Assembly (NCBI GenBank): GCA_034660175.1
Contig: JAYEIQ010000006.1
Span: forward strand, 10,201 to 74,200
Reading direction: 5' to 3'
DNA: 64,000 bases
DNA from: Patescibacteria group bacterium
GTDB lineage: Bacteria > Patescibacteriota > Minisyncoccia > Moranbacterales > DUUL01
A model generated the notes under the pieces. That model had not been told where the DNA came from. It saw only the letters and a program-made list of their open reading frames with translations, and did no database searches. The stretch's first letter is position 1. Each line of letters begins with the position of its first letter. A program made the position numbers and the translations under genes. Shown in pieces: positions 2,577 to 49,064 of the stretch.

Positions 2577-4193
2577 ATGGAAAAAATAGACAAAATAGTC
2601 AGCTTTCTTGAAAAAGGTCCACTTTCTATAAGAACGTGGATCGTGTCTTTTGGTGGGATAGTCGCTGCTCGAATTTTGATTGAATCTTTGGTTTTTTCTT
2701 TTGAACAAAAAACATTTGATGAATTTTTGGGGATCATTTTTGGAACAGTTCTGTTTTTTCTTTTTTCTTATATTGTTTTGCTAGTTGTTTTGAGATTTTT
2801 AGTGAAGGAAAAAATTGAGAAACTGGCAAGTGTCTTGCTTTGGGGACAGTGGATGATCATTATACCTCCTATCGTTGATAAGCTTATATTTGGGGATCGA
2901 AAATACTGGAGTTTTTATATTTTTGGTAGTGTGAAAGAGGTCATAATTAAGGGGCTGACTTTTTTTGGTGAAAATCCTTCTTTCGGGATCACGTGGGGAA
3001 CGAGGTTGCTTGTTTTGATTACTGTTGTTGGTTTGGGGTTGTATGTTTTTTATAAAAAAAGAAAAATTGTCTGGTTTTTCATTGGTGCAATATCTGTATA
3101 TTTGGTCTTGTATATTTTGGGTGCATTTCCTAGTTTTGTTAGCTTTGTCATATTGCCTTTTGCTGGTGTTGGTTTGTTTGCAATAGAGGCGGAGGACATT
3201 GCTAAGCAATTTTTAACATCTTTGCAATTGTTTGGAATTGAAAATTCTGGAATAAAAGTTGTTTTGCACTATAAAATGGGTTTGGTCTATAACCCGTTAT
3301 TATTTGTGTTTTCTGTTTTTCTGTTGTTTGTTTCCCGTAGGAGGTGGTTTTTCGCCTTGGCGAAAAATGTTCGTTATCCTCAAATGATCTTTAATTGCGG
3401 TTTGTTTTTTTTGGGTGTTGGTTTGGGTTGGATGAGGTTTCCACAAAACTTCGGCATTGATTTTTTTGAGATGATGGCTTTGGCCAACGCAATATTGGCG
3501 ATTTTTTTTGCTTGGTATTTTTCTGTTGTGGTCAATGATTTAGCGGATATTGAAATTGATCAAATATCCAATCAAGATCGTCCACTGACAAGTGGCGCGA
3601 TCAAGAAAAGCACATATTCTGACTTTGGTTTGATTTTTGCACTTTTTGCACTTCTGTCTTCTTTGGTTGTTTCAAAGGTTTTTTTCTTGATTATTGTTGG
3701 ATATCTTTTGGTTACTTGGGTTTACTCCTCACATCCTTTTCGTTTGAAAAGGTTTGTTCTTGTCTCAAGTATTCTTTCGTCATTTGCATCACTATTTTTT
3801 CTGTTGGGAGGATATTTGTTAATTTCAGATTTTCAAACTTTGCAGTTTTTTCCTTGGAGAATTATTTCTTTCTTGTTCATTGCATACGCATTTCTTATAC
3901 CACTGAAAGACATTAAGGATATAGAAGGAGATCAAGCAAAAGATGTGGAGACCCTTCCTGTTGTGTTAGGAGAAGAAAATGCAAGAATTTTCTTGGGTGT
4001 TGTTTTGTTTGTGAATTATGTTCTTTCTCCTGTGATTGTTGACGAACGTTCTCTTTTTTTGCCAGCTGTTCTTTTTGGTGGAATCAGTTATTGGGTCATA
4101 ACAAACCAAAAACACAAACCAAAAACTTTGCCTTGGTGGGTTTTGGGAATTGTGACAATTTATGGTATGCTTTTAGTGTTGATGATTTTTTGA
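2577..4193 (+). CDS. UbiA-family prenyltransferase domain fused to a roughly 290-aa N-terminal polytopic membrane domain
   Basis: The C-terminal half carries NDLADIEIDQISNQDRP (first Asp-rich motif NDxxDxxxD) and DIKDIEGDQAKD (second Asp-rich motif). Many transmembrane segments run throughout the protein. Confidence 0.6.
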   Translation: MEKIDKIVSFLEKGPLSIRTWIVSFGGIVAARILIESLVFSFEQKTFDEFLGIIFGTVLFFLFSYIVLLVVLRFLVKEKIEKLASVLLWGQWMIIIPPIVDKLIFGDRKYWSFYIFGSVKEVIIKGLTFFGENPSFGITWGTRLLVLITVVGLGLYVFYKKRKIVWFFIGAISVYLVLYILGAFPSFVSFVILPFAGVGLFAIEAEDIAKQFLTSLQLFGIENSGIKVVLHYKMGLVYNPLLFVFSVFLLFVSRRRWFFALAKNVRYPQMIFNCGLFFLGVGLGWMRFPQNFGIDFFEMMALANAILAIFFAWYFSVVVNDLADIEIDQISNQDRPLTSGAIKKSTYSDFGLIFALFALLSSLVVSKVFFLIIVGYLLVTWVYSSHPFRLKRFVLVSSILSSFASLFFLLGGYLLISDFQTLQFFPWRIISFLFIAYAFLIPLKDIKDIEGDQAKDVETLPVVLGEENARIFLGVVLFVNYVLSPVIVDERSLFLPAVLFGGISYWVITNQKHKPKTLPWWVLGIVTIYGMLLVLMIF

Positions 4194-4200
4194 AAAAACT

Positions 4201-4227
4201 TTGCACAAAAAATAATTGTGGTATAAT
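4201..4227 (+). promoter_or_regulatory. Putative sigma70-type promoter with -35 TTGCAC, a 15-nt spacer and an extended -10 TGgTATAAT
   Basis: Read directly from the sequence upstream of the 4311 CDS. Confidence 0.4.
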
Positions 4228-4310: not shown

Positions 4311-5354
4311 ATGAAAAAAATTTTTGAAAAATATTCAAACAAGAAAATCTCTGTTTTTGCAGTGATACTTCTTTTTGCTTGGCTCAATTTTTCATTCGCG
4401 CAGGATGATGAGCTGAATAATTTTGAAGACAGAGACGATGATGGTCTCGCAGACATTGAAGAGGAGACACGTGGAACTGATCCAGACAATCCAGACACAG
4501 ACGGTGATGGATATGGTGATGGGGTTGAAGTTGATGGAGGCTATGATCCTCTTATCCCGGCCCCGGGAGATCGTGTTGGTGAGGACGAGGAAAGCGAAGA
4601 GATAGATAAGGTGAATGTGACAGATATTTATAAGAACATCATTGAAGAATCCAAGGGGAAAGAAATTGATATTTTAAAAGAAGCATTTCTCACCGAAGAA
4701 GGCGTGGTTAGTATTGACGATGAAGATGGAGATGTCTCATTGACTGACGATGATATAGAAGATTTTGTTGCTGAAACTCTCGAAGAGAGTGGTTTGATGA
4801 ATACTGAGATGGAAATGATCGACGAAGAAGATCTCAACATTCTTGATCCGTCCGAAGATGAGGATGCCAAAGAAGTTCTTAGTGAAGAAAAAAAACAAGT
4901 GGAAGAATACTTAATTGAAATCGGATATATTCTCACCGAAAATTATGATTACGTTTCTGGAGATCAAGATGTCTTGACTGGAGACTTGATGGGCCTGATC
5001 ATGGAAATTGGTCTTGATATTGATGAGGGAGATGACTCAAGGGTAAATGAAATGAAAGAAGATGGAAAGGATATTTTTGAGCAACTCAAGGAAATCGAGG
5101 CACCATATGTTCTCAAAGATGTTCATGTGACTGCAATGTCGTTGTTTCAACACATATTGAAACAAGATGAAAATCTTGTGTTTGACAGAGACGATCCTGT
5201 TGGATTGAACCTGTTGATCGGTCAAATCGAGGGTGTTGTGATGGAAGCTGACAGTTTGAGTGAGCAAGTGAACGAAGTGTTACAGCAACATGACATTGAC
5301 ACGATTAACACAGGGGATTATCAAGGTCAAGTTGGTGCAGGTTCCTTTTTCTAA
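4311..5354 (+). CDS. Secreted, highly acidic protein with thrombospondin-type-3-like Ca-binding repeats
   Basis: It has an N-terminal signal peptide (MKKIFEKYSNKKISVFAVILLFAWLNFSFA). It carries the repeat DDDGLADIEEETRGTDPDNPDTDGDGYGDG (DxDxDGxxD). The rest of the protein is Asp/Glu-rich. Confidence 0.5.
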   Translation: MKKIFEKYSNKKISVFAVILLFAWLNFSFAQDDELNNFEDRDDDGLADIEEETRGTDPDNPDTDGDGYGDGVEVDGGYDPLIPAPGDRVGEDEESEEIDKVNVTDIYKNIIEESKGKEIDILKEAFLTEEGVVSIDDEDGDVSLTDDDIEDFVAETLEESGLMNTEMEMIDEEDLNILDPSEDEDAKEVLSEEKKQVEEYLIEIGYILTENYDYVSGDQDVLTGDLMGLIMEIGLDIDEGDDSRVNEMKEDGKDIFEQLKEIEAPYVLKDVHVTAMSLFQHILKQDENLVFDRDDPVGLNLLIGQIEGVVMEADSLSEQVNEVLQQHDIDTINTGDYQGQVGAGSFF

Positions 5355-5393
5355 ATAAAGGGGCAGTCAAGTTTTGTATAATATAGACAAAAA

Positions 5394-6311
5394 ATGCAGT
5401 TTCAAAAACAAAAAAAATACAAGAAAATAATTGCCGCATTTTTATTGGTAACCTTTTTGATGTTTTCTGGAGGTCAGGCAAGGGCTGGTTATTGGTCTGA
5501 GAACTTTAAGGCAAATACCGTGGATACTATGTATGATGAGATTTTGTATGGCATCAAGAAAGTGATTTTGCAGAAAATGAAGCAGTCTGCCGGAAAATCA
5601 GTTAGTGGAAAGATGAGGAGTCTTGCAGCAGGAACGACGGGTAAATCTGGTGTCGTTTCTAACTATGAAGATTTTATTTTTGGTGCATCTCAAAGAGATG
5701 TTGATAATTATGTGACAGACTTTTTTCGAGTTATGCAAACAGGTGGAGTTTCTCCTGAAACAAGGGGTGAGTTGAGAATGATCGAAATAGCAATTCGAAA
5801 CGAATTGGAACCATCTATGCCGGATGATCTTTTTGAGCACAGAATAAATAGTCCAACTCCCAGAAAAGATGTCTTTGACCAAACTGTTGGTGGTGGGAAA
5901 GAGGAGTATTTGGAAATGCAAATGGGTGGGGCTCATCCAGTTGACATTTTTTTTCAGACTGAAAACATGATCTCTGCAAGATTTGAGCAAGAAGCAGTGG
6001 CAAATGAAGCAGAGGCTGTTGCTGGTGGTGGATTTGCAACAGTGATAAATGGGAATAAAGTCGTTCCCGGTTCAGTTATGAAGGATTTGGTTTCAGCTTC
6101 TGAGGAGATGCCAATTCAAATGATTAACAATGCCGGGTCTTGGCAGGAAATCATTGCAACTATGGCTGTTCAGTCTTTGGTTTCTTTTTCAAAACAAGGA
6201 ATAGAGATAGTTTCAAAACCAGCAAAAAATAAAGAAAGAAGAATTCAAAGAAGCAGGACGAATGGAGTTAATGGCGCTCTTGATCAAGTCTATAGTGGTA
6301 TAAACTATTAA
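5394..6311 (+). CDS. Secreted hypothetical protein
   Basis: Signal peptide with an AGY cleavage-like site. No recognisable catalytic motifs. Confidence 0.4.
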   Translation: MQFQKQKKYKKIIAAFLLVTFLMFSGGQARAGYWSENFKANTVDTMYDEILYGIKKVILQKMKQSAGKSVSGKMRSLAAGTTGKSGVVSNYEDFIFGASQRDVDNYVTDFFRVMQTGGVSPETRGELRMIEIAIRNELEPSMPDDLFEHRINSPTPRKDVFDQTVGGGKEEYLEMQMGGAHPVDIFFQTENMISARFEQEAVANEAEAVAGGGFATVINGNKVVPGSVMKDLVSASEEMPIQMINNAGSWQEIIATMAVQSLVSFSKQGIEIVSKPAKNKERRIQRSRTNGVNGALDQVYSGINY

Positions 6312-6326
6312 TGTTCAATTGAAAAA

Positions 6327-8249
6327 ATGTTTTTCAAACAAAACAAAACAAAAAGCATCTTAGCACTTTTATTTCTGGGTGTGTTTCTGAGTTGCTCCTT
6401 TGGCTTTGTTGGTGTGGCTGGAGCTGGAGAAGGGCAAAGAAGAGAACAGGCGCAAGGTACGGGAACTATAACAGATGAAGCCAAAAAGATCCTTAGCAAA
6501 ATTGTTTCTCCTATTTTGGGTGGCATAAAAAAGATAGGAATAGCAATTGTTTCTATTCCTTTGATACTTCTCAGGAAATTGACAGCTGTGTTACTCACGG
6601 TTTCAATGAACACCGTGGACTTAATGCTGAGTGAGGCGATGTATAGTAACGTCTTTTTTTCTCCAGAGGCAAGAACCGCGCTAAACACTGGTTGGGGTTT
6701 GGTGCGTGATTTTGTAAATATGTTCTATGTCTTGATATTGATATTCTTGGCAATTGCAACAATTTTGCGGGTGAATAAGTTCAGTGATAAAAAGCTTTTG
6801 TTGTCGGTGGTGATTAGCGCCTTGTTGGTCAACTTTTCAAAACCTATTGCATTGTTCATTATTGATGCTTCGAATTTGGCTATGAGTTTTTTCATGGGAA
6901 ATATCACAACAACAGGATTAAGCTACACTGAGCTGATGGCCGAGAGAATGAGTTTCTCTAGTCTCTGGGCAGGAAATGTAGGCCAGAGCACTGAGGGAAT
7001 GTTGGTGGTCACGATAAACGAGATTATATTTACTATGATTTTTTCGACAACCTTGTTCGTTTTGGGATTTGCTCTACTTATTCGATTGATCGCTTTTTGG
7101 GTTTTGATCGTACTTTCACCACTTGCATTTTTTTGTCTTGTATTGCCAGGAACATTTTTGAGCGGTTTATACAAAGGCTGGTTGGAAAAAATGGTATACT
7201 GGGCGTTTTTTGGTCCCGTTCTCTTGTTTTTCTTGTGGCTAGCTCTGGTTTTGGTAAATGCATTGACCATAGCAACAATAGCTGCCCCAATACCAGGCAT
7301 CAATCAAACACCAATTTCGTCTGGTGAAGGGTTGAGTGGTTTTGCAATTAATTTTTTCAGACACATTATCCCATTTGCAGCAACCATCTATTTATTATTT
7401 TATGGTTTTGATACATCTCGAAAGATGGCCGAAAGGGCTGGGTCTTCTGTGGGTGGTTTAATGAGAAGAGGAAGTGAATGGATGAACAAAGGGCTCAAAT
7501 ATTCAGCAATAGCTGGAACTGGTGCTGTTGGGGCTATGGGATATGCTGGATATAAGTATGGAAAGAATTATGCAAGTGATGCAAGAACGGCAGCAGAGAA
7601 AAAGCTTTCAGAAAGCGATAGTAGACTTAGAACCTTGACAAAAAAAGGACGTGAGAGGCAATCTGAAGAAAGAGTGGCTAGAATGACTGGCGAAACTGAC
7701 AAACTTGACAGAGACAAGACCAATGAGAGCTATAAAAAAATGAAAGATTCTGGTCAGGCCAAGAATGAGGTGATCAGTAATATTAGCAGTAAAGATAAGC
7801 ATGATGCAGCTGCAGCTGCAAAACTTGCTGCTGAAAAAGGATGGCTTGGAAGTCAGGATGATTATGAAAAGGCAACAAGTGCAACAAGTAAGATAAAACC
7901 AATAAAATATCAATTTGATGAATTAGCAAAGAAGAAAAACCTCAATTCGGTGATTAATTATGATCTCAATACAAAGGCACGTGAATTGGGTCATGCTGAC
8001 GCAAACGCACTTTCCAGTGCTGATCCAACGACAGCAGCGGCTGTATTGGATAAATACATGGCAAACAAAGGTGCTGTTGACTTTGCTGACGAAAAAAGGG
8101 AATTTTTTGACAACGCTATAGTAGCCAAACATTTATCTAACAAGTATGGTTCAGCCACTTCTGATGTTAAGAGTGCTGCTAGAAAAAAGGCAACAGATAA
8201 AATTAGTGATCCAGAAAAACTACAAAGAGTATTGGATATTATCGGATAG
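6327..8249 (+). CDS. Polytopic membrane protein with a C-terminal charged tail, possibly a VirB6/TrbL-like T4SS channel component
   Basis: A signal or transmembrane segment is followed by about 6-8 transmembrane helices (aa ~60-370), then a 270-aa Lys/Ala/Glu-rich hydrophilic tail. The call rests on this architecture plus the neighbouring VirB4. Confidence 0.35.
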   Translation: MFFKQNKTKSILALLFLGVFLSCSFGFVGVAGAGEGQRREQAQGTGTITDEAKKILSKIVSPILGGIKKIGIAIVSIPLILLRKLTAVLLTVSMNTVDLMLSEAMYSNVFFSPEARTALNTGWGLVRDFVNMFYVLILIFLAIATILRVNKFSDKKLLLSVVISALLVNFSKPIALFIIDASNLAMSFFMGNITTTGLSYTELMAERMSFSSLWAGNVGQSTEGMLVVTINEIIFTMIFSTTLFVLGFALLIRLIAFWVLIVLSPLAFFCLVLPGTFLSGLYKGWLEKMVYWAFFGPVLLFFLWLALVLVNALTIATIAAPIPGINQTPISSGEGLSGFAINFFRHIIPFAATIYLLFYGFDTSRKMAERAGSSVGGLMRRGSEWMNKGLKYSAIAGTGAVGAMGYAGYKYGKNYASDARTAAEKKLSESDSRLRTLTKKGRERQSEERVARMTGETDKLDRDKTNESYKKMKDSGQAKNEVISNISSKDKHDAAAAAKLAAEKGWLGSQDDYEKATSATSKIKPIKYQFDELAKKKNLNSVINYDLNTKARELGHADANALSSADPTTAAAVLDKYMANKGAVDFADEKREFFDNAIVAKHLSNKYGSATSDVKSAARKKATDKISDPEKLQRVLDIIG

Positions 8250-8279
8250 CTCAGAATTCGAAATCAAAAAACACAGGAT

Positions 8280-9464
8280 GTGTTGGATATAAATAGTTAT
8301 GCTTTTTTCAAAACGAAGATGGATCAACAAACAAAAGTATCAAGCAGGCAAGCTAGTCCATATTTTGCAAGTGTAAACTTTGAACAAGAAAAAGACACAA
8401 AAGAAGAAAGAACAGAACTCACTCGCAAGTTTATTTCATTGCCAAGGGCAATCAGGTATGGACTTTTAGATTCTGAAACTCGAAAGGGCATTGAAAGGGT
8501 GTCCAATTCTTTTGGTGTAAATGATCAAAACAAGATAGGAGAAATTTCTCGTATGGTGAGGAATGTTTATTTGGAGAAAATTGATAAGAGTGAGATCAAG
8601 AAAGGAGCTCAGGAAAAGATCGCAATAGAATCAGCCAGGCTCGATGAGTTTGTGAAGGAGGTTGATCGAATTGCAAAAAAAGTAAAGCAAAGAGGGGAAG
8701 AAGAGATCGCAGCGGATTCTGAAGAATTACCGATAATTCCAGCGCTTAAAAAATTTGAAAAACTAGGAGGGCAAGAGATAACAGAGGGATTTATTGAGAT
8801 AGAAGTTGATTTAGAAAAGAAGTCTGTTGAGCCAACGATCAGAAATTGGTTGGAAGATTATATTCAAAACAAAGGTGCGCAAGCTCATGACAATCTTGAG
8901 CGAAGTGATTACTTGTATAAATCTGCAAACACTGAACTTCTTTCAACTCAAGAAAGAGACAAGTTGTCCTTTGTTCTTCGTTCCTATGACCTGGACGAGA
9001 CAATTCTTGTGAGCAAGGGTTCCCAGGAGGTTTTCTTTGAAAAAGTTTCTCATGTGGAAAAAAACGGTCAAGTTGAGAAAAGAAAAGAGTCTTCTACAAA
9101 AGCAATCGATCAAAAAAAAGGAGATGAAAAAAACTTTGAGGGTGTTTCTCGTGACCTGAAACAGGGGGATGAGGAGTCAAAAGGACGACAACAGGAATCT
9201 TTTGAAAGAATGATAGGTGAGGAAGATCCAGATGATGAACGAATCAGAAACAAACCTCATGAAATAACTTGGTATGGAAAAAGTTCACCCTTTGATAATT
9301 TGGAAAAGATAGATACAGATTCATTTCAGAAAGGAAGCCAAGAGAAGTTGGAAAACAAGACTACTATAACTGCACAAAAAGAAAACGAAAAGAAAATTGA
9401 CTTTGCTTTGAGTAATAATCCACAGAAAATGAAACATGTTGTTGATCTGAAAAAGGACATTTGA
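8280..9464 (+). CDS. Hypothetical charged, probably disordered protein
   Basis: A 394-aa ORF that is Glu/Lys-rich with no transmembrane segments. It lies inside the T4SS-like cluster. Confidence 0.35.
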   Translation: MLDINSYAFFKTKMDQQTKVSSRQASPYFASVNFEQEKDTKEERTELTRKFISLPRAIRYGLLDSETRKGIERVSNSFGVNDQNKIGEISRMVRNVYLEKIDKSEIKKGAQEKIAIESARLDEFVKEVDRIAKKVKQRGEEEIAADSEELPIIPALKKFEKLGGQEITEGFIEIEVDLEKKSVEPTIRNWLEDYIQNKGAQAHDNLERSDYLYKSANTELLSTQERDKLSFVLRSYDLDETILVSKGSQEVFFEKVSHVEKNGQVEKRKESSTKAIDQKKGDEKNFEGVSRDLKQGDEESKGRQQESFERMIGEEDPDDERIRNKPHEITWYGKSSPFDNLEKIDTDSFQKGSQEKLENKTTITAQKENEKKIDFALSNNPQKMKHVVDLKKDI

Positions 9465-9506
9465 TTTTAGTGGTCTGTTTTTATTGTTTTCTATTGTTGA
9501 ATTTAT

Positions 9507-9923
9507 ATGCGTTTCAATGTTCCACAATTTATTAGTATTGAAGATAAAATAGCCTTTCAACTCACAGCAAAACAGTTAGGTTGGTTTGCTCTTGGCGGGG
9601 TTATTCTTTTTTTTATTTGGCAAGTCGCCATTCCCGCAATATTTTTTGTCTGGGTTTTTATTATAGGCGCATTAGCATTAGCATTTGCATTTGTTAAGCC
9701 CTATGGGATCCCCTTTTTATCTTTTTTGGTTAGCAATGCGAAGTATTTGATTCGTCCAAAGGTTTTGGTTTGGGAGAGAAAGGTAAAAGAACAAAAAGAT
9801 CAAAAAGCCAAACACAAAACATCAACTAGAAAGAAGGCTGGGATCGACAGATTTATGAAAGAGAAAGAGCTAAAAAAGGTGGATGATTTCGCAAGCGTAT
9901 TAGACAAACAAAGCAAAATTTAG
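9507..9923 (+). CDS. Small two-transmembrane membrane protein, possibly a VirB3/PrgI-like component
   Basis: A 138-aa protein with two hydrophobic helices followed by a basic tail. It sits immediately upstream of the VirB4-like genes. Confidence 0.3.
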   Translation: MRFNVPQFISIEDKIAFQLTAKQLGWFALGGVILFFIWQVAIPAIFFVWVFIIGALALAFAFVKPYGIPFLSFLVSNAKYLIRPKVLVWERKVKEQKDQKAKHKTSTRKKAGIDRFMKEKELKKVDDFASVLDKQSKI

Positions 9924-9955
9924 GTTTAAAAATAAAATAAAAGTAGAACAAAAAT

Positions 9956-10660
9956 ATGGCGCTTGATTTTTTGACAAACAATAAAAACAAACAGGAGGAT
10001 CACCAAGGGACAAGCATGCAGGAATATCTGAATGTTGCTGAGATAAAGGATGGTGTGGTTGTTGTGAAAGATGGCTCTCTCAGAGTAGTTTTGGCGGTTT
10101 CTTCGGTGAATTTTGATTTGAAGTCTGACACAGAACAAGAAGCAATTATCTTTGGTTATCAAAGATTTCTCAACGCTCTGGATTTTCCGCTCCAGATCTT
10201 GATTAGCACAAGAAAATTCAACATCAAACCTTATATGCAGATGCTTGAGAAAAAGAAAGAAATAGAAAGGAATACGCTCATGAGAGGACAAATAGAAGAT
10301 TATTTGGTTTTTGTGAAGGAATTGGTTAGTGTCTCAAACATAATGTCAAAATTGTTTTATGTTGTAGTTCCTTTTTATGTTGTGGAGTCAAAAAAAGGTG
10401 GATTTTTCAGTAGGTTCACTGCTTCGTTTAAGGCAAGAAAGGTGCTTTATCAAAAAAGAGAAGAATATGAAACCTATAAAAACCAACTTCTTCAAAGGGT
10501 TGATGAGGTCAAGGAGTCTTTGAGCGGAACAGGAATTCGAATGGTTCAGTTGAACACACAAGAGCTTATTGAACTCTATTATAATTATTATAATCCTTCG
10601 GAGTTTGAACACACCTCAATTCCAGCACTTGAATCTCTTGGTGTTGAGGAGATTCGTTAG
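9956..10660 (+). CDS. VirB4/TraC N-terminal domain-like protein, apparently the separated N-domain of VirB4
   Basis: The motif IKDGVVVVKDGSLRVVLAVSSVNFDLKSDTEQEAIIFGYQRFLNALDFPLQILISTRK matches the conserved VirB4/TrbE N-terminal region. Only 25 nt separate it from the ATPase ORF. Confidence 0.5.
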   Translation: MALDFLTNNKNKQEDHQGTSMQEYLNVAEIKDGVVVVKDGSLRVVLAVSSVNFDLKSDTEQEAIIFGYQRFLNALDFPLQILISTRKFNIKPYMQMLEKKKEIERNTLMRGQIEDYLVFVKELVSVSNIMSKLFYVVVPFYVVESKKGGFFSRFTASFKARKVLYQKREEYETYKNQLLQRVDEVKESLSGTGIRMVQLNTQELIELYYNYYNPSEFEHTSIPALESLGVEEIR

Positions 10661-10685
10661 GAATTTTATAGTTAAAGCTTTATAA

Positions 10686-12575
10686 ATGCCAAGTATACTT
10701 TCAAAATTATTACCAAAAAAACAAGAAGAAAAGGCCAAAGAAAGGGCTGAAGGAGTCCAGGAATTTGAGCAATCAAAGGAGGTGCCAGATGACCTTCTTG
10801 AGCAAGAAAAGTTATATCAAGAAGGCCTTGCTCATGTTTTGGATCTTATTTCTCCTTCAGCAATGGGAGTTTCCAGTTCTCATTTGCAAATAGGTGACGT
10901 GTATTGTCGAACATTGTTCGTTGCAGCATATCCACGCTCTCTTAGCATGGGATGGATGAATCCAATAATTGGAATGGATTTGCCTATGGATGTTGCGATG
11001 TATATATATCCTGTTGACACAGGGGCGATTTTGAAAAAGTTGCGCAAGAAGGTTACTCAAATTCAGTCAGAGATGAATATTGAGGCTGAAAAAGGATTAA
11101 CCAGAGATCCTGTTCTTGAAATGGCATATCACAACGTTGAAAAATTGAGAGACCAATTGCAGGAAGGAATTGAGCGTTTCTTCAAGTTTGGTCTCTATTT
11201 CAATGTGTTTGGCAAAACTCAAGAGAGACTTGAAAAGAACTGTGTTATGCTTGAATCCCTGGTTAATGCTCGATCTGTCTACACCAAAAAAGCGATTTTC
11301 AGAATGAAAGAAGGTTTTGTTTCTTGTATTCCTCTGGGAAAGGATAGAATTGGAAACGGAAATGCACTCAACACCTCTCCTTTGTCCACAACATTCCCTT
11401 TTGTTTCTGCTGATGTAACTTCAAACCAAGGAATCCTTTACGGAATCAACAGACACAACAACTCTTTGATTCTTTTTGACCGGTTCACGATGGAAAATGC
11501 AAATATGGTTGTTTTTGCAAAGTCTGGTGCTGGAAAAAGTTATACTGTAAAATTGGAAATTCTTAGATCGATGATGTTGGGAATCAATGCTATTGTAATT
11601 GATCCAGAAAATGAATATAAATACCTCTCAGAAGCTATTGGTGGTTCCTATCTCAATATTTCTTTGAACACAAAACACCATATCAATCCTTTTGATTTGT
11701 CGGAGGAGAAGGATCGATCCATGAAGGAAATTTATCGTTCAAATGTGGCTAACTTGCTTGGCCTCTTGAAGCTTATGCTCGGAAGACTCACACCAGAAGA
11801 AGAGTCTATTTTGGAGCAGGGTATCCGTGAGGCATATGCCGTACGTGATATTACAGAGAACACTTTAATTGAGGATCTTTCTGCTAGGACTGTGCCAGTT
11901 TTGACAGACCTGTATGAAATTCTCAGAAATATGAAGGGTGCGGAAGATCTAACAATAAGACTTGAGAAGTATACTAAAGGTATTTTTTCTGGTTTTTTGA
12001 ATGAGCGATCGAATATCACATTGGACAATCGATTGGTTGTTTTTAACATCAGAGATTTGGAAGAAGAGCTTCGTCCAATTGCTATGTATATGATCTTGAA
12101 TTTCATTTGGCGAGAAGTGAGAATGAATATTAAGAAAAGAATGATTGTTGTTGATGAGGCTTGGCGAATGATGGAACACGAAGACGCGGCTAGGTTTTTG
12201 TTTTCTGTGGCCAAAAGAATAAGAAAATACTATGGTGGACTTTCAACTATAACCCAAGATATTTCGGACTTCATGGCTTCAAAATATGGCAAGCCAATTG
12301 TTTCAAACTCATCAATTCAACTTTTGATGAAGCAGTCTCAGTCTGCGATTGATGTTATTGCAGACACATTTTATTTAACTGACCGAGAAAAGTATTTGCT
12401 CATGGATTGTGGTGTTGGTGAGGGGATCTTTTTTGCTGGATTGAAGCGTGCTGCTATTCAGGTGGTTGCATCATATGGTGAGGACAAAATAATCACAACA
12501 AATCCAGCCCAAAGACTTAAGATCGAGCGTGAGAAAAAAGAAAAAGAAACTGAGGTAGAAATGGAAAAAAAGTAG
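10686..12575 (+). CDS. VirB4/TraC/TrbE-family type IV secretion ATPase, comprising the central and C-terminal ATPase domains
   Basis: Walker A is FAKSGAGKSYTVK, Walker B is MIVVDEAWRMM, and DPENEY is also present. The N-terminal region (IGDVYCRTLFVAAYPRSLSMGWMNPI) is VirB4-like. Confidence 0.75.
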   Translation: MPSILSKLLPKKQEEKAKERAEGVQEFEQSKEVPDDLLEQEKLYQEGLAHVLDLISPSAMGVSSSHLQIGDVYCRTLFVAAYPRSLSMGWMNPIIGMDLPMDVAMYIYPVDTGAILKKLRKKVTQIQSEMNIEAEKGLTRDPVLEMAYHNVEKLRDQLQEGIERFFKFGLYFNVFGKTQERLEKNCVMLESLVNARSVYTKKAIFRMKEGFVSCIPLGKDRIGNGNALNTSPLSTTFPFVSADVTSNQGILYGINRHNNSLILFDRFTMENANMVVFAKSGAGKSYTVKLEILRSMMLGINAIVIDPENEYKYLSEAIGGSYLNISLNTKHHINPFDLSEEKDRSMKEIYRSNVANLLGLLKLMLGRLTPEEESILEQGIREAYAVRDITENTLIEDLSARTVPVLTDLYEILRNMKGAEDLTIRLEKYTKGIFSGFLNERSNITLDNRLVVFNIRDLEEELRPIAMYMILNFIWREVRMNIKKRMIVVDEAWRMMEHEDAARFLFSVAKRIRKYYGGLSTITQDISDFMASKYGKPIVSNSSIQLLMKQSQSAIDVIADTFYLTDREKYLLMDCGVGEGIFFAGLKRAAIQVVASYGEDKIITTNPAQRLKIEREKKEKETEVEMEKK

Positions 12576-12593
12576 TTTTCTAAAAAAACTAAT

Positions 12594-13139
12594 ATGGATC
12601 AGGAGCAAGAATATTATAGTCAACTTGTGCGTAATCGTAATTTGCACAGAATGGAATTTGCGAAAGAGATGGCAAGTGATTTTTCTGCTGAAAAAGAAGC
12701 ACAAAATAAGAAATATGGAAACTACGCAGATACCGCTCGAACAATGCGAAGAGTTGCTGCTGGTTCAAAGATCAGGGCTCCAATTGAAGCTGTGAATCTT
12801 GGTTTCAAATTGAGACACGAATTGAAACAAGGAGAGGGATCCGCTCTCAAGCTTGCTTTATTTTTTGCTACTGTTATTGATTTTATTGACATCATTCCTG
12901 TTGCTGGTTGGTTGGTAACTTTATTTTTTAAGCCTATTTTGTTCATTATGCTTTGGGGTTATGGAACATGGAAATTAAAATTACTCAGAGCTGTTCTTCT
13001 TATGTTTGATTGTATACCTCTTGTGAACAAGATTCCAATGAGCGTTGCCAGTGTTGTTTACACCTATCATGTGATTAATAAAAGAAAAAAGGAGGCTCGA
13101 AAGGAATTGGATGAATTGCAAAAAGTTTTTGATGTTTGA
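12594..13139 (+). CDS. Hypothetical membrane protein
   Basis: A 181-aa ORF with about three transmembrane helices in the C-terminal half. It lies in the T4SS-like cluster. Confidence 0.35.
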   Translation: MDQEQEYYSQLVRNRNLHRMEFAKEMASDFSAEKEAQNKKYGNYADTARTMRRVAAGSKIRAPIEAVNLGFKLRHELKQGEGSALKLALFFATVIDFIDIIPVAGWLVTLFFKPILFIMLWGYGTWKLKLLRAVLLMFDCIPLVNKIPMSVASVVYTYHVINKRKKEARKELDELQKVFDV

Positions 13140-13182
13140 GAAGAGTTGATTTTGAGAAAAGAAAAATTAAAGATATTTTGAA

Positions 13183-13872
13183 ATGTTTATTATTGCAGAT
13201 AAAAAGAAAACAGAATTGCTTTTGGTGCTGATCGGGTTTGTGGTTATCACATTGCTCATTGAGTTTTTTTTGTCGAAGATTGAAACAGATGGGGTTTGGG
13301 AATGGGCCTTATTATCAATGGTGTTTTTCTTGTTCACTCCTCTGTTCATAGTCAAAAAGCTTTGGAAAAAGACTTTCAAGGAATATTTTTTGTCACTTGA
13401 TGTTTCAATAAAAGCAATTGTTATTAGTCTGACTGCTGTGTTGATTTATGTTGCTGTAATGTGGCTTCTTGTGGTACAATTGAATTGGAGAGGGCATTTG
13501 ACTGTTTCAAGGTGGATTCTCGGAAGTACTGGCTTTTTGTTGTTCGTTGACCTTGTTGTCATGCCGTTTGTGATCTTTGCCAGAGAGTTCTTTTTTAGAG
13601 GTTTTATCTTGAAGTCAGCAGTGGGAGTATTGGGAATGGTTGGTGCAATTGTTTTTCAGTCAATTCTTGCCACTGGATATGATGTCTATATAGGTGGATT
13701 TTCTGATTGGGTGGGTGCTTGGCCTCAGATAGTGTTATTACTATTCTTTAATGCCATGCTTGGGTTTGTTGCTTTGGTAAGCAGGTCAATTATTGTTACA
13801 TCAATAATTTCCTGGGCACATTTTTTGTTTGTCGATCTATTTTTTGCATATCAACTATCAAATTTCAGTTAA
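13183..13872 (+). CDS. Polytopic membrane protein with a weak CPBP (CAAX protease) family resemblance
   Basis: At least six transmembrane helices. AREFFFRGFIL resembles CPBP motif 1 (EExxxR...FRG). Later motifs are poor. Confidence 0.3.
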   Translation: MFIIADKKKTELLLVLIGFVVITLLIEFFLSKIETDGVWEWALLSMVFFLFTPLFIVKKLWKKTFKEYFLSLDVSIKAIVISLTAVLIYVAVMWLLVVQLNWRGHLTVSRWILGSTGFLLFVDLVVMPFVIFAREFFFRGFILKSAVGVLGMVGAIVFQSILATGYDVYIGGFSDWVGAWPQIVLLLFFNAMLGFVALVSRSIIVTSIISWAHFLFVDLFFAYQLSNFS

Positions 13873-13900
13873 TTAAACCTGGATTTGAAAAAAACAAACT

Positions 13901-16768
13901 ATGAAAAAAAACAAAAAAACAAAAAACAGTCTATTTACATTTCCTGTTATTTTGATCGGAGCAATTTTTATGTTTTTCGGTTCAATGGCTTTTGCAGCAG
14001 GAGGAGTAGGCGATGGGGGCGCAGGAACTGATGATGAAGAAGAAAGAAGGGAACAGTGTGTGATCACCGCAAGCAAGGGATCTGTTGTGGACCTGAATGC
14101 AGTAGCTGAATGTATGGAAAATCGTTATGGATATGACAAGGACATGTTGCGTCGAGCCAAAAAGAAAGGGATTTCCCCAGAAATTGATATGCATTTTGAC
14201 AAAACGAACCCATCGGAGGGGCAAGAAGTGACCGCAATGGCAATAGGAAAATATTTTAGAAATGACATAGACGATCTTTATTACACTTGGTACATTAGGC
14301 ACACGGATGCTGCCGGGAATTTCACAAATACCTTAAGCGAAGGAAAGCAGGAGGCGATGGGGATTATTGCCAGAGGAAAATACGATCCAAGATTGTTCGG
14401 TGAGGATTATTCGGCGGATACTGACGGCGACGGTGGTTTTGGTCCTTTTGGCGGATATGATGGGGTTGGAGCCAAGGTAGGCTGGGGAACGGGAGAGTAT
14501 GATGACAGTCCCGATGTTTTGTGGGATGTTCCCAAGATGATCGTTGCTAGTAGTGCCATAACTCGTTGTTACGCTCACAATTTTGGAAACAAATTTGGAT
14601 CAGGAGAGGATGGTAATTCGGGAAGGGACATGATCATTCCTTGTGAGCATGAATGGCCAAATTGTGGAGGTCATATAACTGGAGATGGTAACTTTAGTGC
14701 AGATGAGGAAAGATGCTGGAATACTGATCCAACTAATCCAGACACTGATGGTGATGGAATTCGTGACGAGCTGGACATTATGGGTCTCGGTCAGCAAGAA
14801 TTTACCTGGACCTATCGGGCCGGTGATCATGTGGGAGTTGTTATTGAAGGAACTTCTTTGTCGACTATCAATGAAGGGGGTATGAACTTTGATAACTATG
14901 TTGATTGCGAATGGTCAACTCTCGCTTCTTCTGCTGATGGTTCGATATCTTGCGGTGGTTCGGGAACACGAGATGAAGCTTTGGCTGCATGTCGTGATTG
15001 TCTTCAAGATGATCTGGAGACAATAACAGAAGAGACAACAACAGGAACTGAAACATCAACAGGAACCCAAGACCCAGTGACTGGTGCCACGACTGGAACT
15101 ACTGTTGTAGATATCACAACAGAGGGCACTGAAACGACAGACTTAACCGAGCAAAATAATGGAATAGCTGCCTATGATGCCTGCGAAGAGAGTCTACAGA
15201 GACACTGTATACATCTAGATCCAAACGAGTCGGATGAAGATATCCTGGAGCAGCTTGAAGATGATGGTGCTCTTAACATGGATGGAGCTACCAACGCCTA
15301 TTACAAAATTATGTGGGCGCATCTGGATTTCGTTGGAGAAGGAGATAGGGCGGGGTTCGGTTATAAAGAATCAATCTCTATAGATGAAAAGGGCGAAGAA
15401 CTATTGGAGCCAGCAATTGACTACGCTCCAAAGAACCCACAATATGATAGCATTGACTCTTTGAATTCGGATATCATAACCGTTACAGCAGGCGTGAATA
15501 ATGACAATGTTGATGAGGATTTCTTGTACTACAACTGGAGAGTTCGCAAATGTGTTGCAGATGATCTTTTTGAGTGTCCATATGAAATGACAGGAGCGGT
15601 TGAATGGGAATCTTTCAATCAAGGTTTGGGAGTCAAAAAAATCAAGTTTATTCCGACTTCAGATCTTTTTGAGTCTGGAGAAACTAAGGTTTGGTTGAAG
15701 GTGAATGTGGTTGTTTCTCAACACGAGGATTATGTCGGTGGAGCAGAGCTGGATTTGGAGCAAGATTATTTCCCTGTTGGTGCGATTGACGAAGTGATGA
15801 TGACTGTAACACGAAATGACATGAATTTGAGACTTTTCAGGGCTTTTAACAACGGAGGTACATGGACTGTTGGTGATGAAATTTGTGCAGCAGGTGTATA
15901 TCGAGATATTTGTCCCCTGTATCCTTTTGAAGTTGTCGCTGCTAGGGCAGAAACGCCTTCCGCGGAAATGTTTGCCTGGCAACTCAACGATGAGCAATTG
16001 CAACCTCCTCTAGAGTGTTTGATGAGTTCTGGTTGTAATGTCTATGAAGATACTGTTTTCTTTCCAGTTTTTGGATCAGGAAAATCTCTTGGCACAATCT
16101 CTGCCACGGCCAATGGAATTGGAAATACAAATATAATTTCTCAGAGAATATTCTCTATATTTAATCCTGTTGGTGTGCTTGTTTCAGGAAGTGCAAACTT
16201 GACCCCAACGGAAAGATATGATGGAGCTCCCTCAGAATTTGTGTATGAATCTGCAGCAGGAGAAACTGTGTCGTTGTTTGTTGACTCCTTGATTCCAAGT
16301 TATCTAGATTGGTCGGAAGTGAACATTCAGTGGTATATTAATGGGATACAGGCGTATGATGGAATTGCCTTAGTACCTGATTTTGTTGTAACAAATCCAA
16401 GTTTGAATCTTACAGTTAGTCCTGATAGACGAACAATTTCATTCGTGAATGATGGTCTTTGGGGAAAAGGACTTGAAGTAGCCTGCAGAATTGAAAAGTT
16501 GGTTGATAGTGTAGATTTATTGGAAAGAGGTTGGGCAATAAGAGACAGTCACACGCTTGTTCAAGACACAAATGTGAATGTTAAGGTTGCATTTGATGCC
16601 ACGTTTGAGGCAGCTCCAATTGGAAGCAGAACATTGCAAAAATTTCTTGCATCTTCTTTGCATAATGCTCCACAATACTTGATTTTTATTGTTCGACTTG
16701 CTGTTGCAATGGTTTTGGTCTGGAGTATCTTGTTTGGAGTTTCCTATGCAGTGAAGCTAAATGAATAG
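13901..16768 (+). CDS. Large secreted surface protein with a C-terminal membrane anchor, a putative adhesin or pilus-associated protein
   Basis: A 955-aa protein with a signal peptide (MKKNKKTKNSLFTFPVILIGAIFMFFGSMAFA). It has a TSP3-like motif NTDPTNPDTDGDGIRDELD, a Thr/Gly-rich linker and a C-terminal transmembrane segment (AVAMVLVWSILFGV). A pilin gene follows 3 nt later. Confidence 0.5.
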   Translation: MKKNKKTKNSLFTFPVILIGAIFMFFGSMAFAAGGVGDGGAGTDDEEERREQCVITASKGSVVDLNAVAECMENRYGYDKDMLRRAKKKGISPEIDMHFDKTNPSEGQEVTAMAIGKYFRNDIDDLYYTWYIRHTDAAGNFTNTLSEGKQEAMGIIARGKYDPRLFGEDYSADTDGDGGFGPFGGYDGVGAKVGWGTGEYDDSPDVLWDVPKMIVASSAITRCYAHNFGNKFGSGEDGNSGRDMIIPCEHEWPNCGGHITGDGNFSADEERCWNTDPTNPDTDGDGIRDELDIMGLGQQEFTWTYRAGDHVGVVIEGTSLSTINEGGMNFDNYVDCEWSTLASSADGSISCGGSGTRDEALAACRDCLQDDLETITEETTTGTETSTGTQDPVTGATTGTTVVDITTEGTETTDLTEQNNGIAAYDACEESLQRHCIHLDPNESDEDILEQLEDDGALNMDGATNAYYKIMWAHLDFVGEGDRAGFGYKESISIDEKGEELLEPAIDYAPKNPQYDSIDSLNSDIITVTAGVNNDNVDEDFLYYNWRVRKCVADDLFECPYEMTGAVEWESFNQGLGVKKIKFIPTSDLFESGETKVWLKVNVVVSQHEDYVGGAELDLEQDYFPVGAIDEVMMTVTRNDMNLRLFRAFNNGGTWTVGDEICAAGVYRDICPLYPFEVVAARAETPSAEMFAWQLNDEQLQPPLECLMSSGCNVYEDTVFFPVFGSGKSLGTISATANGIGNTNIISQRIFSIFNPVGVLVSGSANLTPTERYDGAPSEFVYESAAGETVSLFVDSLIPSYLDWSEVNIQWYINGIQAYDGIALVPDFVVTNPSLNLTVSPDRRTISFVNDGLWGKGLEVACRIEKLVDSVDLLERGWAIRDSHTLVQDTNVNVKVAFDATFEAAPIGSRTLQKFLASSLHNAPQYLIFIVRLAVAMVLVWSILFGVSYAVKLNE

Positions 16769-16771
16769 CAA

Positions 16772-17188
16772 ATGAAAACAAAAAAAATATATAAATTTGT
16801 ACGCCTAGTTTTTCTGAGCGCTATTTCTGTAATGGCTCCAATGGTTGTTTTTGCTGGGAGTTATGTAACAAGAGAGCCCATCCCTGGTGCTCCAAGAAGA
16901 AATAATTTTATTGAATATCTTGGAGATTTGTATGGGTTTGGAATCGCAGTGGCTGCCATTTTGGCCATATTTATGATTTCTTTTGGTGCATTTGTCTATA
17001 TTGTTAGTTCTGCGGGAAATTCTGCCAAGATGGGAAATGCTAAGGATATGATTTTTAATGCCATTTATGGTCTCATTATTGCCCTTATAGCCTACTTGAT
17101 CCTCTTTGTTGTTAACCCTGATCTTGTTAGAGGAACGATTGATTCCGTTCCTCCTGCTAGAGACTTTATGACTAATAGAGGGCCTTAG
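16772..17188 (+). CDS. VirB2/TrbC-like pilin-family protein
   Basis: A signal peptide plus two transmembrane helices with a conserved core (GAFVYIVSSAGNSAKMGNAKDMIFNAIYGLIIALIAYLIL). The same core is shared with the eight paralogs at 45.9-50.3 kb. Confidence 0.5.
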   Translation: MKTKKIYKFVRLVFLSAISVMAPMVVFAGSYVTREPIPGAPRRNNFIEYLGDLYGFGIAVAAILAIFMISFGAFVYIVSSAGNSAKMGNAKDMIFNAIYGLIIALIAYLILFVVNPDLVRGTIDSVPPARDFMTNRGP

Positions 17189-17229
17189 CAAAAACATAAA
17201 AGTTTTTAGAACAAAATCAAAACATAAAA

Positions 17230-18360
17230 ATGACAAAGAAAATATTTATTGTTTCAGCTATTATTTTCGCAATAGCAATTAGTGCCTTGATTGTTTCCAA
17301 GGTTTTTTTGTCTGAAAAAGGTTCGTCTAGTTTAAGTATTGATAACCCATTTTCAGATGATGAAGATGATGATGAAAAAGAGGTTGAAAGTCCCAGTGAT
17401 GCAGTTATCTCAAAAGTGCTTGACAGAGAGGTGAAGGGTGTGGTTTTGACTGGCTCAAGCCAACTTATGTTCTATAATGATCAAAAAGTTCTTTCAACAA
17501 ATTTTGAAGGAAAAAAACTCAAGTCGTTGGGTGCGTATCCTTTTGTAAAGGTTCGGGATTTTGATTGGCACCCAAAAAATGAAAAAGCCTTAGTCAATGA
17601 TAACGGCAAGTATTATACCTATTTCCTCAAAGACAACTCTGCTCGTGAATTTGCTCTGAATGCCGATGTTGCCAAATGGGATGTTTTTGGTGATAGAGTT
17701 ATATACAAAAAATATGATGTCAATTCATCAAAGAGGATAATAGGAGTTGTAAATTCATCGGGAGAGGAACAGCGAACTTTGGTCGAAGACCTTCCTTTTA
17801 AGAAAGTTGATTTTACGGTGCCTCAAAAAAAGAACTTTTTTTGCTATTTCCCAACATCGGACAGTTTAGTTAGTGGAAATCTCATTTGTGTTGACGTGAA
17901 AAGCAACGAGCAAAAACAGGTCCACGCTGATTCTTTTGGTGCAGACTACTTGCTCTCACCAAATGGAAAGAAAGTGCTTATTTCATCTGCTCAAAAGAGG
18001 GGTGGAAATAAGCTTATTCTTGGGGTGATGAGCTTGAAAGGGGCTGAATTTCAAGGTTTGAATTTTTCCACTTCGGTTAAAAAGTGTGTTTGGGCAAAAG
18101 ATAGTAAGCACATTTTCTGCGGAGCTATAAATGCTATTCCGGGTCAAGCTGTTATGCCAAATGATTGGGAGAACAAGAAATACTATTCTTCAGACACGTT
18201 TTGGAAGATAAATACTGATAATGGAAAACAAACCAGGCTGATCGATCTTGAACAAACACCTGGTCATCTTGATGGAGCTAACTATTTTCTTGATGAAAAA
18301 GAAAAAAACTTGTTTTTCATTGAAAGAAAGTCAGGTCATCTTTACAAGGTCAGTCTCTAA
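17230..18360 (+). CDS. N-terminally membrane-anchored hypothetical protein with an extracytoplasmic domain
   Basis: A 376-aa ORF with a single N-terminal transmembrane segment. No catalytic motif recognised. Confidence 0.4.
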   Translation: MTKKIFIVSAIIFAIAISALIVSKVFLSEKGSSSLSIDNPFSDDEDDDEKEVESPSDAVISKVLDREVKGVVLTGSSQLMFYNDQKVLSTNFEGKKLKSLGAYPFVKVRDFDWHPKNEKALVNDNGKYYTYFLKDNSAREFALNADVAKWDVFGDRVIYKKYDVNSSKRIIGVVNSSGEEQRTLVEDLPFKKVDFTVPQKKNFFCYFPTSDSLVSGNLICVDVKSNEQKQVHADSFGADYLLSPNGKKVLISSAQKRGGNKLILGVMSLKGAEFQGLNFSTSVKKCVWAKDSKHIFCGAINAIPGQAVMPNDWENKKYYSSDTFWKINTDNGKQTRLIDLEQTPGHLDGANYFLDEKEKNLFFIERKSGHLYKVSL

Positions 18361-30754: not shown

Positions 30755-34054
<3,300 letters not shown>

Positions 34055-34361
34055 TCCAACTGACCATTTTCATTTAGGTTGATAGGAAAAATTGTATATT
34101 TAGCTAGAATATATTGCTTTGGAGTTCAAAAAATTCGCAAATGTATTTAATATACGTAGAGAATTTTTTAAACGAAAAGCATACAGACTGGTTGAAGATG
34201 CGGTTTTTAACATTAATCTAAATGTAAATGGTCAGTATACATGGCTTGGCATTTGAGTTTATACTTTTTTGTATAAGTTCTTCCGCCGGGCTAAATGACT
34301 AGCAATTAAGAAAGATTGAATGAGTTTATATCAAAAGTAAGCTCTTAATTAGATAATTTTG

Positions 34362-40773: not shown

Positions 40774-40777
40774 TTAT

Positions 40778-46278: not shown

Positions 46279-46295
46279 TTTTTTGTTTTGTTTTT

Positions 46296-46931: not shown

Positions 46932-46954
46932 GAAAAAGAGTTTAGTGAGTTATT

Positions 46955-47296: not shown

Positions 47297-47437
47297 AGAA
47301 GAAAGTTTTGCTGGTTTTTTGTAATTTTTTTGATTTCGACAAAGACATATTTACTTCATTTTAGCAAACCAGAGTCAAAATAACAAGCCTCGTAAAGAGG
47401 CTTGTTATGTGAGATAGTCTTCCTAGGAAGAAGATCT

Positions 47438-47803: not shown

Positions 47804-47958
47804 TGTAACACCTCGCTTTCTAGATTTATTTTTATTTTTCGGATATAAAACTTGACTTGTCCGAATGTTATTTACTTCATTTTAGCAAACCAGAGTCAAA
47901 ATAACAAGCCTCGTAAAGAGGCTTGTTATGTGAGATAGTCTTCCTAGGAAGACTATCT

Positions 47959-48324: not shown

Positions 48325-48384
48325 TGTAACACCTCGCTTTCTAGATTTATTTTATTTTTATTTTTAACACAACTTTTTTGTTTT

Positions 48385-48987: not shown

Positions 48988-49064
48988 AAAACAGTTTTTA
49001 TATTTCTGATTTAATTATAACACATAATTATCCAGGTAAACAAAAGGAGAGACATGCTCCTTTT

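Follow-up and report, generated by a model that had tools for sequence, protein, structure and literature searches.

We analysed a 64,000-nucleotide stretch of the genome of a Patescibacteria group bacterium (assembly GCA_034660175.1, contig JAYEIQ010000006.1, positions 10,201 to 74,200), hereafter the window, and characterized a gene cluster for a type IV secretion system (T4SS) close to its start. The cluster encodes a translocon set comprising a VirB6-like channel protein, a VirB3-like protein of the PrgI family, a TrsD N-domain protein and a VirB4 ATPase. VirB2-like pilins are encoded by one gene in the cluster and by eight genes in a remote array, and a conserved set of exported accessory proteins accompanies translocon and pilins. 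The arrangement is of the Paceibacteria/Moranbacteria type. With high confidence we consider the cluster a chromosomally fixed patescibacterial T4SS, derived from monoderm conjugation machinery of the MPF-FATA (mating-pair formation, FATA) class and no longer conjugative; a host-contact pilus or conduit is its probable function. An earlier note on this DNA had described a minimal, non-conjugative T4SS-like pilus machine of the kind reported in ultra-small episymbiotic bacteria. Its observation was confirmed and its interpretation is supported, the kind in question being the patescibacterial T4SS of PMC10633639 and PMC12102498. The system itself is not new, having been described in papers of 2023-2025; what is added here is a twelfth gene with the corrected cluster boundary, the remote pilin array and a catalogue of co-conserved partners.

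The motor protein was identified in the seventh gene, g07. Its product of 629 amino acids (aa) scored 356 bits against the NCBIfam model NF045971 ("VirB4-like conjugal transfer ATPase, CD1110 family"; cutoff 325 bits), spanning model positions 155-728 of 752, and matched the Pfam families P-loop_TraG (1.8e-29) and CagE_TrbE_VirB (1.3e-3). The best relative of solved structure was the C-terminal domain of the Thermoanaerobacter VirB4 (PDB 4ag5, 1.2e-43), and TrwK was matched at 5e-6. With the CD1110 VirB4 model above its cutoff and 4ag5 as the top structure, the protein is a T4SS ATPase and not a member of another P-loop family. The Walker A (AKSGAGKS, residues 278-285) and Walker B (IVVDE) motifs, both of which the earlier note had assigned to this gene, are present and intact. 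A six-frame pattern scan showed that g07 encodes the only convincing Walker A protein in the window; the only other pattern match, AAGTTGKS in g02, falls in a secreted helical protein. A VirB4 scan of species-representative genomes yielded 80 related loci, across which the identity of VirB4 was 46-82%. The proteins of the window were compared with all open reading frames (ORFs) of these loci by BLASTP and iterated profile searches, and the ORFs that filled the remaining gaps were then clustered. Presence counts given below cover only loci with at least 7 kb of flank (n=42 or n=46).

The gene upstream of virB4, g06, encodes a 234-aa protein that matched the NCBIfam TrsD model (NF041427) at 6.6e-8 and aligned to positions 85-231 of 894 in the VirB4 model of Mycoplasma integrated conjugative elements (ICEs) and to positions 11-98 of 752 in the CD1110 VirB4 model, all with scores under the NCBI curated cutoffs. 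These matches to TrsD/TraD and to the N-terminal part of full-length VirB4 models agree with its earlier reading as a VirB4 N-domain ORF. Since g06 covers the model N-terminus and g07 the span given above, the two proteins tile a full VirB4. TrsD was a separate ORF directly upstream of virB4 in 42/42 loci, and the "split VirB4" of the earlier note is therefore an ancient fixed arrangement: its two ORFs stand, but a recent split does not.

The small protein with two transmembrane (TM) segments encoded by g05 (138 aa) proved to be PrgI/VirB3-like, as it scored 39.1 bits against PF12666 (PrgI), above the gathering score of 27; it also matched TcpE (2e-4), and PrgI was present in 42/42 loci. The VirB6-like protein g03 (640 aa) has about seven hydrophobic segments followed by a hydrophilic, charged C-terminal tail of about 240 residues. 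Its VirB6/TrbL-like architecture, recognized earlier, is supported at the family level only: PF04610 (TrbL/VirB6) was matched by 13 of 44 relatives from related loci (best 6e-8), and the top PDB match of the family profile was TrwI (VirB6) of R388 (7o3v_F, E 1.1e-3, 250 positions). The gene was found in 41 of 42 loci. A match of the g03 tail to SLT_L (E 0.008) was treated as chance.

The cluster pilin g11 (138 aa) matched PF18895 (T4SS_pilin) at 1e-4 and 22.8 bits, below the gathering score of 26.6, and the Mbov_0395 pilin-like family at 2.4e-3. The claim of a VirB2-like pilin is borne out by its family, as PF18895 was matched by 43 of 47 members (best 9e-14) and TrbC/VirB2 by five. This pilin was present in 43/46 loci. 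In the remote array, five of the eight genes exceeded the PF18895 gathering score, and the first and last (49745-50266 and 45913-46278) were just below it; gene 46955-47296 had no Pfam match and is termed pilin-like from its sequence only. One array gene also matched TrbC/VirB2 (3e-4), and three of the eight encode two-domain proteins. The 121-aa products of 47438-47803 and 47959-48324 are identical and result from a 521-bp tandem duplication with 99-100% identity. The array probably belongs to the same T4SS as the cluster; PF18895 pilin arrays of 2-11 genes have been described for Patescibacteria (PMC12102498). Duplicated pilins or pilin and propeller pairs were also observed within the cluster of other loci (L040, 13264-17232; L078, 2926-5947; L064, 13349-15000), which suggests that the pilin-propeller pair duplicates as a unit.

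Structurally, the cluster consists of 12 intact plus-strand ORFs (4311-18360) with gaps of 3-43 nt between them, and its GC content and GC skew match those of the surrounding genome (Table 1). All eleven same-strand genes listed in the earlier note were found where it had placed them; the cluster end that it gave, at 17188, has to be moved, because g12 adjoins the pilin gene. The window opens with a partial dnaA (14-823), followed by dnaN (1106-2257), a DciA-family gene (2196-2561) and a UbiA-family gene (2577-4193) that immediately precedes the cluster. The dnaA-dnaN spacer holds three DnaA boxes at 937-1044, two perfect (TTATCCACA) and one with a single mismatch. This site is likely oriC, since the window holds no other perfect DnaA box. 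GC skew was positive from the boxes onward, and the cluster starts about 3 kb past the origin region, with dnaA, the boxes and dnaN 2-4 kb upstream. This bears out the earlier description of the cluster as lying directly behind the origin. Of the promoter-like sites in the region, the best (TTTGCA-16-TATAAT with a TG) lies ahead of g01 at 4200-4227; promoter and terminator scans gave counts at chance level, and only this site was positionally sensible. The UbiA-family protein carries a polytopic extension of about 300 aa at its N-terminus, to which the prenyltransferase domain (residues 301-507) is fused, and synteny of its gene with the cluster was limited to the closest relatives (L001, L002 and L005).

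Table 1. Genes of the T4SS cluster and of the remote pilin array, with positions in the window.
Feature	Position	Strand	Evidence or remark
g01, secreted or anchored, very acidic protein with TSP3 Ca-binding repeat and a C-terminal domain without assigned role	4311-5354	+	
g02, exported or N-terminally anchored all-helical protein of a large undescribed family	5394-6311	+	
g03, VirB6/TrbL-like polytopic protein ("extended VirB6")	6327-8249	+	PF04610 and TrwI, at family level
g04, hydrophilic, fast-evolving protein without TM segment	8280-9464	+	slot between VirB6-like and PrgI genes
g05, PrgI family, VirB3-like membrane partner of VirB4	9507-9923	+	PF12666
g06, TrsD/TraD-type, free-standing homologue of the VirB4 N-terminal region	9956-10660	+	NF041427, VirB4 models
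g07, VirB4 ATPase, signature motor of type IV secretion	10686-12575	+	NF045971, P-loop_TraG, 4ag5, Walker motifs
g08, small membrane protein with hydrophilic N-terminal half and TM in C-terminal half	12594-13139	+	
g09, six-TM protein, weakly CPBP/Rce1-like	13183-13872	+	PF02517
g10, surface protein of 955 aa, predicted adhesin-like	13901-16768	+	AlphaFold 2 model, Foldseek, hhalign
g11, VirB2-like T4SS pilin with signal peptide and two TM helices	16772-17188	+	PF18895
g12, membrane-anchored TolB-like (PD40) beta-propeller	17230-18360	+	N-terminal TM, profile match
Pilin array, eight VirB2-like genes	45913-50266	-	PF18895, up to 60.5 bits
Array pilin 1	49745-50266	-	
Array pilin 2	49065-49706	-	
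Array pilin 3	48385-48987	-	
Array pilin 4	47959-48324	-	
Array pilin 5	47438-47803	-	
Array pilin 6	46955-47296	-	
Array pilin 7	46296-46931	-	
Array pilin 8	45913-46278	-	

The genes were strongly co-conserved in order across the 80 loci, which answers the synteny check that the earlier note had proposed. The near-invariant order is g01, g02, VirB6-like protein, soluble protein, PrgI, TrsD and VirB4, followed by a small membrane protein, the Ig-like protein, the pilin and the beta-propeller, with dnaN about 4 kb further. Conservation of ten gene families ranged from 32/46 to 42/42, and dnaN lay at most 10 kb away in 30 of 46 loci. This near-constant order, often beside dnaN, indicates that the system is chromosomal and inherited vertically, and that it is not a mobile element. 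With three exceptions, the loci were labelled as patescibacterial metagenome-assembled genomes (MAGs) or unclassified bacteria, and their lineage labels included Moranbacteria, Paceibacteria, Giovannoni-, Kaiser-, Nomura-, Ryan- and Sungbacteria and others. The exceptions (L003, L005 and L006) were labelled "uncultured Bdellovibrionales"; their VirB4 proteins are 68-71% identical and their synteny is of the Moranbacteria type, and the label is probably a taxonomic misassignment of patescibacterial MAGs.

Published data on the phylum give a similar picture. VirB4 was found in 2,417 of 3,035 Patescibacteria genomes and forms a monophyletic clade nested in MPF-FATA (PMC12102498, Quiñonero-Coronel et al. 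2025). According to the same study, TrsD, PrgI/VirB3, VirB6 and PF18895 pilins are encoded near virB4, which in Paceibacteria is often close to dnaA/dnaN, and T4CP (type IV coupling protein) homologues lie far from virB4 in most genomes (PMC12102498). By inspection of the ORFs of at least 150 aa, we found no relaxase, coupling protein or integrase in the 64-kb window, and the cluster proteins had no Pfam or NCBIfam match to VirB7/9/10, VirB11 or VirB5. The earlier statement that VirD4, VirB11, VirB9/10 and a relaxase are absent thus holds for the window only. VirB4, PrgI and TrsD belong to monoderm conjugation systems, and relaxases, almost absent from Patescibacteria, do occur in 103 genomes (PMC12102498), as would be expected if the cluster were an ICE of the Gram-positive type, or the decaying remnant of one, that transfers DNA between cells. 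However, the gene order and the chromosomal site by dnaN/oriC are constant across divergent lineages, all genes are intact and tightly packed, and in the published VirB4 tree the protein is inherited within classes and hardly ever transferred from one to another (PMC12102498). Given this synteny, the host-like composition and the lack of mobility genes in the window, we rejected the mobile-element reading as extremely improbable.

Several of the remaining cluster proteins are exported. The first, g01, has an N-terminal hydrophobic segment, an isoelectric point (pI) of 4.1 and 29% D+E; it matched TSP3_bac at E 0.007 and occupied its slot in 35/42 loci. TSP3_bac was also matched by 11 of 24 members of its family (best 1.4e-14). 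The earlier note had read g01 and g02 as two secreted acidic Ca-binding-repeat proteins, which is correct for g01 but not for g02, with its pI of 6.8 and no TSP3-type Ca-binding repeat. Word-indexed searches returned only 5 and 8 homologues of g02 and were replaced by an exhaustive HMMER search; the family comprises at least 810 sequence clusters. The predicted structure of g02 is an all-helical bundle, for which the fold search gave neither a VirB8 or VirB5 match nor a relative of solved structure; the gene was present in 34/42 loci. As signal-peptide proteins, g01 and g02 are possible cargo of a system that exports effectors or toxins into the host. Such an exporter needs no coupling protein if its substrates are Sec-exported, as proposed for Bordetella Ptl; T4SSs without a T4CP do exist, among them Ptl and Brucella VirB (PMC12857230), and protein export was proposed as one option by Wang et al. 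(PMC10633639). We nevertheless consider this function unlikely, since the exported proteins are co-conserved with the machinery in a fixed order, a pattern that fits structural parts better than effectors with rapid turnover, and no toxin or enzyme domain was detected in those of the cluster.

Three further proteins gave few database matches. The hydrophilic protein g04, which has no TM segments and had been left out of the earlier gene list, has an uncertain GTG start with an ATG 13 codons downstream. Its family had no Pfam or PDB match; the slot was occupied in 36/42 loci, in other Paceibacteria by a related family (hhalign 92%, E 5e-7, 102 columns). Three membrane proteins had been noted after VirB4, two of which (g08 and g09) were found and the third not. 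The slot of g08, conserved just 3' of virB4, was occupied in 32/46 loci, elsewhere by related small membrane proteins (hhalign 89-98%); the g08 family likewise had no Pfam or PDB match. The six-TM protein g09 scored 20.6 bits (E 5.4e-4) against PF02517 (Rce1-like; cutoff 22.4). Inspection by eye showed a degenerate first motif, REFFFRG, only, with non-canonical His motifs. With the score below the cutoff and catalytic motifs that look degenerate, we rejected an active CPBP protease and retain a weak resemblance only. Found in 6 of 46 loci, all from close relatives (Moranbacteria-like genomes only), g09 is a lineage-specific addition.

The 955-aa protein g10 had been described as an anchored surface protein, in agreement with its hydrophobic segments at both termini and its Ig-like model. 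Its signal peptide is followed by an N-terminal domain that carries a TSP3 Ca-binding repeat, by a linker rich in Thr and by beta-sandwich domains of Ig/cadherin-like type in tandem, and the protein ends in a membrane anchor. The AlphaFold 2 model (pLDDT 78) showed a confident N-terminal domain, a disordered linker, beta-sandwiches and a C-terminal TM helix, and its Foldseek matches included protocadherins, the Ig-like domains of PrgB (8beg, 5.9e-8), Hoc and S-layer proteins, which together suggest an adhesin-like protein; the family profile had no PDB sequence match. The 96 homologues were mostly from Moranbacteria, some with PF02412 (TSP_3). Since residues 666-865 align with the Ig/PKD-like protein of about 330 aa found at the corresponding place in other Paceibacteria (hhalign 94.7%, E 6e-8, 167 columns), g10 is its expanded orthologue; one or the other was present in 34/46 loci. 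The last gene product, g12, was assigned by its family profile, which matched TolB structures at 2.5e-17, and by members that match PD40. Its gene adjoins the pilin gene in 39/46 loci, and the published accounts of the patescibacterial T4SS (PMC12102498, PMC10633639) do not mention the propeller. On the minus strand, two tandem genes for polytopic membrane proteins resembling Wzy_C/O-antigen ligases (18350-20825) are convergent with the cluster end and overlap g12 by 11 nt.

Tandem Ig/cadherin-like domains and Ca-binding repeats are adhesin-like folds, and the variable pilin arrays resemble antigenic or host-range variation (PMC12102498). An organelle for adhesion only, in which the pilus, together with the Ig-like, TSP3 and propeller proteins, fixes the cell to the host and nothing passes, would account for these features. 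Attachment and motility of Patescibacteria, however, are already served by type IV pili (PMC11623550, PMC12857230), and a VirB6-like channel protein, VirB3 and VirB4 are retained in genomes below 1 Mb, which suggests a translocation function. Adhesion as the sole role is thus quite improbable.

Established T4SS biology (the R388 structure and VirB4-driven pilin extraction) allows a mechanism to be proposed for the host-exchange pilus or conduit. VirB4 hexamers would dock at the membrane via PrgI and the VirB6-like subunits, with TrsD supplying the missing N-domain of VirB4. VirB4 would pull Sec-inserted pilins out of the membrane and drive their polymerisation into a tubular pilus across the wall. 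The Ig-like adhesin g10, g01, g02 and the anchored beta-propeller may build or support the base that spans the wall and the end that contacts the host. The pilus would contact or penetrate the host cell and serve as a conduit for macromolecule exchange, most likely for the acquisition of host material. One may further imagine that the TSP3 protein, g02, the Ig-like adhesin and the propeller replace VirB1, VirB5 and VirB8, forming an undescribed wall-spanning base and tip of a monoderm VirB2-type pilus for the import of host RNA or other macromolecules; we regard this as a doubtful extension.

A more specific version of the conduit is an importer of nucleic acids, comparable to Helicobacter pylori ComB or archaeal Ced, that pulls in DNA or RNA from the host or the environment. 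The VirB4 of the window was weakly similar to the DNA-import ATPases CedB (3e-8; 32.7 bits, cutoff 700) and CedD (1.6e-6; 27.1 bits, cutoff 600), and no export-type coupling protein or relaxase accompanies it in the window. Patescibacteria lack nucleotide synthesis, and in S. epibionticum the competence system is dispensable and the T4SS essential (PMC10633639, PMC11665869): transposon sequencing showed that the SEML1_0006-0019 cluster and the pilins are required for epibiotic growth (PMC10633639, Wang et al. 2023). In addition, the cultivated Minisyncoccota/Patescibacteriota strain OT8 is reported to take up host RNA and to have tubular structures that are perhaps T4SS pili (bioRxiv 10.64898/2026.06.21.733656). 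However, the CedB and CedD scores reflect generic P-loop similarity, the cluster has no recognisable nucleic-acid-binding or nuclease component, and the link between T4SS and RNA uptake in OT8 is only suggested. We view such inward transport of nucleic acids as possible but tentative.

Several points weigh against the reading of the cluster as a non-conjugative patescibacterial exchange system. The placement of g07 in the patescibacterial VirB4 clade is putative and follows from its hidden Markov model class, its best curated models and best PDB match being of Firmicute and Mollicute types, and from the labels of its closest relatives. The assignments of the VirB6-like protein and of the cluster pilin rest on their families, with the window's own scores below Pfam thresholds; for g03 alone, no credible Pfam match was obtained. 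No VirB1-like hydrolase and no NTF2/VirB8-like domain were found among the cluster proteins with Pfam and NCBIfam, and the helical bundle of g02, the one plausible VirB8-type candidate, matched neither VirB8 nor VirB5. Furthermore, the genome may encode a coupling protein outside the window, as most Patescibacteria genomes do (PMC12102498), so that transfer of DNA or effectors might still take place. How the pilus is assembled, what the accessory proteins do, and which cargo moves in which direction would, in this lineage, follow by analogy with other systems.

Some features of the window lie apart from the cluster. A 23S rRNA match at 30757-34056 is 3300 nt long against a model of 2925 positions, and the gene thus carries about 375 nt of insertions; no group I intron model reached its gathering score. 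A 5S rRNA gene (34555-34661) lies about 500 nt downstream. Upstream of the 23S gene is secA, and no 16S rRNA gene was found in the window, which suggests that the rRNA genes are unlinked. At 40081-42661, two neighbouring genes encode membrane proteins whose N-terminal TM domains resemble each other; the second protein (627 aa) has a putative spermidine-synthase-like methyltransferase domain, read from its sequence alone.

The patescibacterial T4SS is regarded as one of the most intriguing systems to have joined the T4SS superfamily recently. It combines machinery of the Gram-positive type with pilins of the Gram-negative type, epibiotic growth of the one species tested depends on it, and a 2025 review calls these T4SSs unique among those of monoderms for their essentiality and possible pili (PMC12857230). 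The present locus adds no new principle to this; it is a clean and complete example of the Paceibacteria/Moranbacteria arrangement. It does offer g01, g02, g04 and g08, together with the Ig-like protein and the TolB-like propeller, as targets for structural and genetic studies of VirB2 pilus assembly in a monoderm and of the material that such a pilus conveys.

Comparisons with known systems showed both shared and differing components. The cluster shares a VirB2 pilin and VirB3-, VirB4- and VirB6-like proteins with Agrobacterium tumefaciens VirB and R388 Trw, the g03 profile finding TrwI, but unlike VirB/D4 (MPF-T) the window has no VirB5, VirB7-VirB11 or VirD4. The patescibacterial cell is thought to be monoderm. 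With H. pylori ComB and archaeal Ced, the cluster shares a VirB4-family ATPase without a relaxase or coupling protein in the window, and the inward transport proposed for the cluster would resemble theirs, although an import function here is speculative. It differs in that the CedB and CedD scores are far below their cutoffs, and no CedA-like or ComB-specific parts were identified, no targeted search having been made. The monoderm conjugative systems of MPF-FATA include pCF10 Prg/Pcf, pIP501 Tra, pGO1/pSK41 Trs, ICEBs1, the Clostridioides difficile conjugative transposons (CTn) and the Mycoplasma ICEs. As in these, VirB4 exceeds the CD1110 cutoff, PrgI, a TrsD-type N-domain and a VirB6-like protein are present, and the VirB7/9/10 core is missing; moreover, the Ig-like surface adhesin recalls PrgB of pCF10. 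Unlike these, the cluster is accompanied by no relaxase or coupling protein in the window and by no recognisable VirB1-like hydrolase or VirB8-like protein, it is chromosomally fixed and not mobile, and it has VirB2-like pilins. To our knowledge, Gram-positive T4SSs lack such pilins.

The published annotation of the Saccharibacterial SEML1 cluster includes a lysozyme, an NTF2-like protein and a pair of VirB6-like proteins; a propeller, a TSP3 protein and a g02-like protein are all missing from it (PMC10633639). The accessory genes of the window differ from these and comprise the acidic TSP3 protein, g02, g04, g08, the 955-aa Ig-like protein, the CPBP-like protein and the TolB-like propeller. 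This accessory set is thus lineage-specific, and it is not discussed in the text of the published accounts of the patescibacterial T4SS (PMC12102498, PMC10633639). In its remaining features the cluster resembles the T4SS of the Patescibacteria clade: relaxase and T4CP genes are not nearby in the 64-kb window, VirB4 is accompanied by a separate TrsD, PrgI/VirB3, a VirB6-like protein and PF18895 pilins including arrays, and the genes are chromosomal and lie next to dnaA/dnaN.

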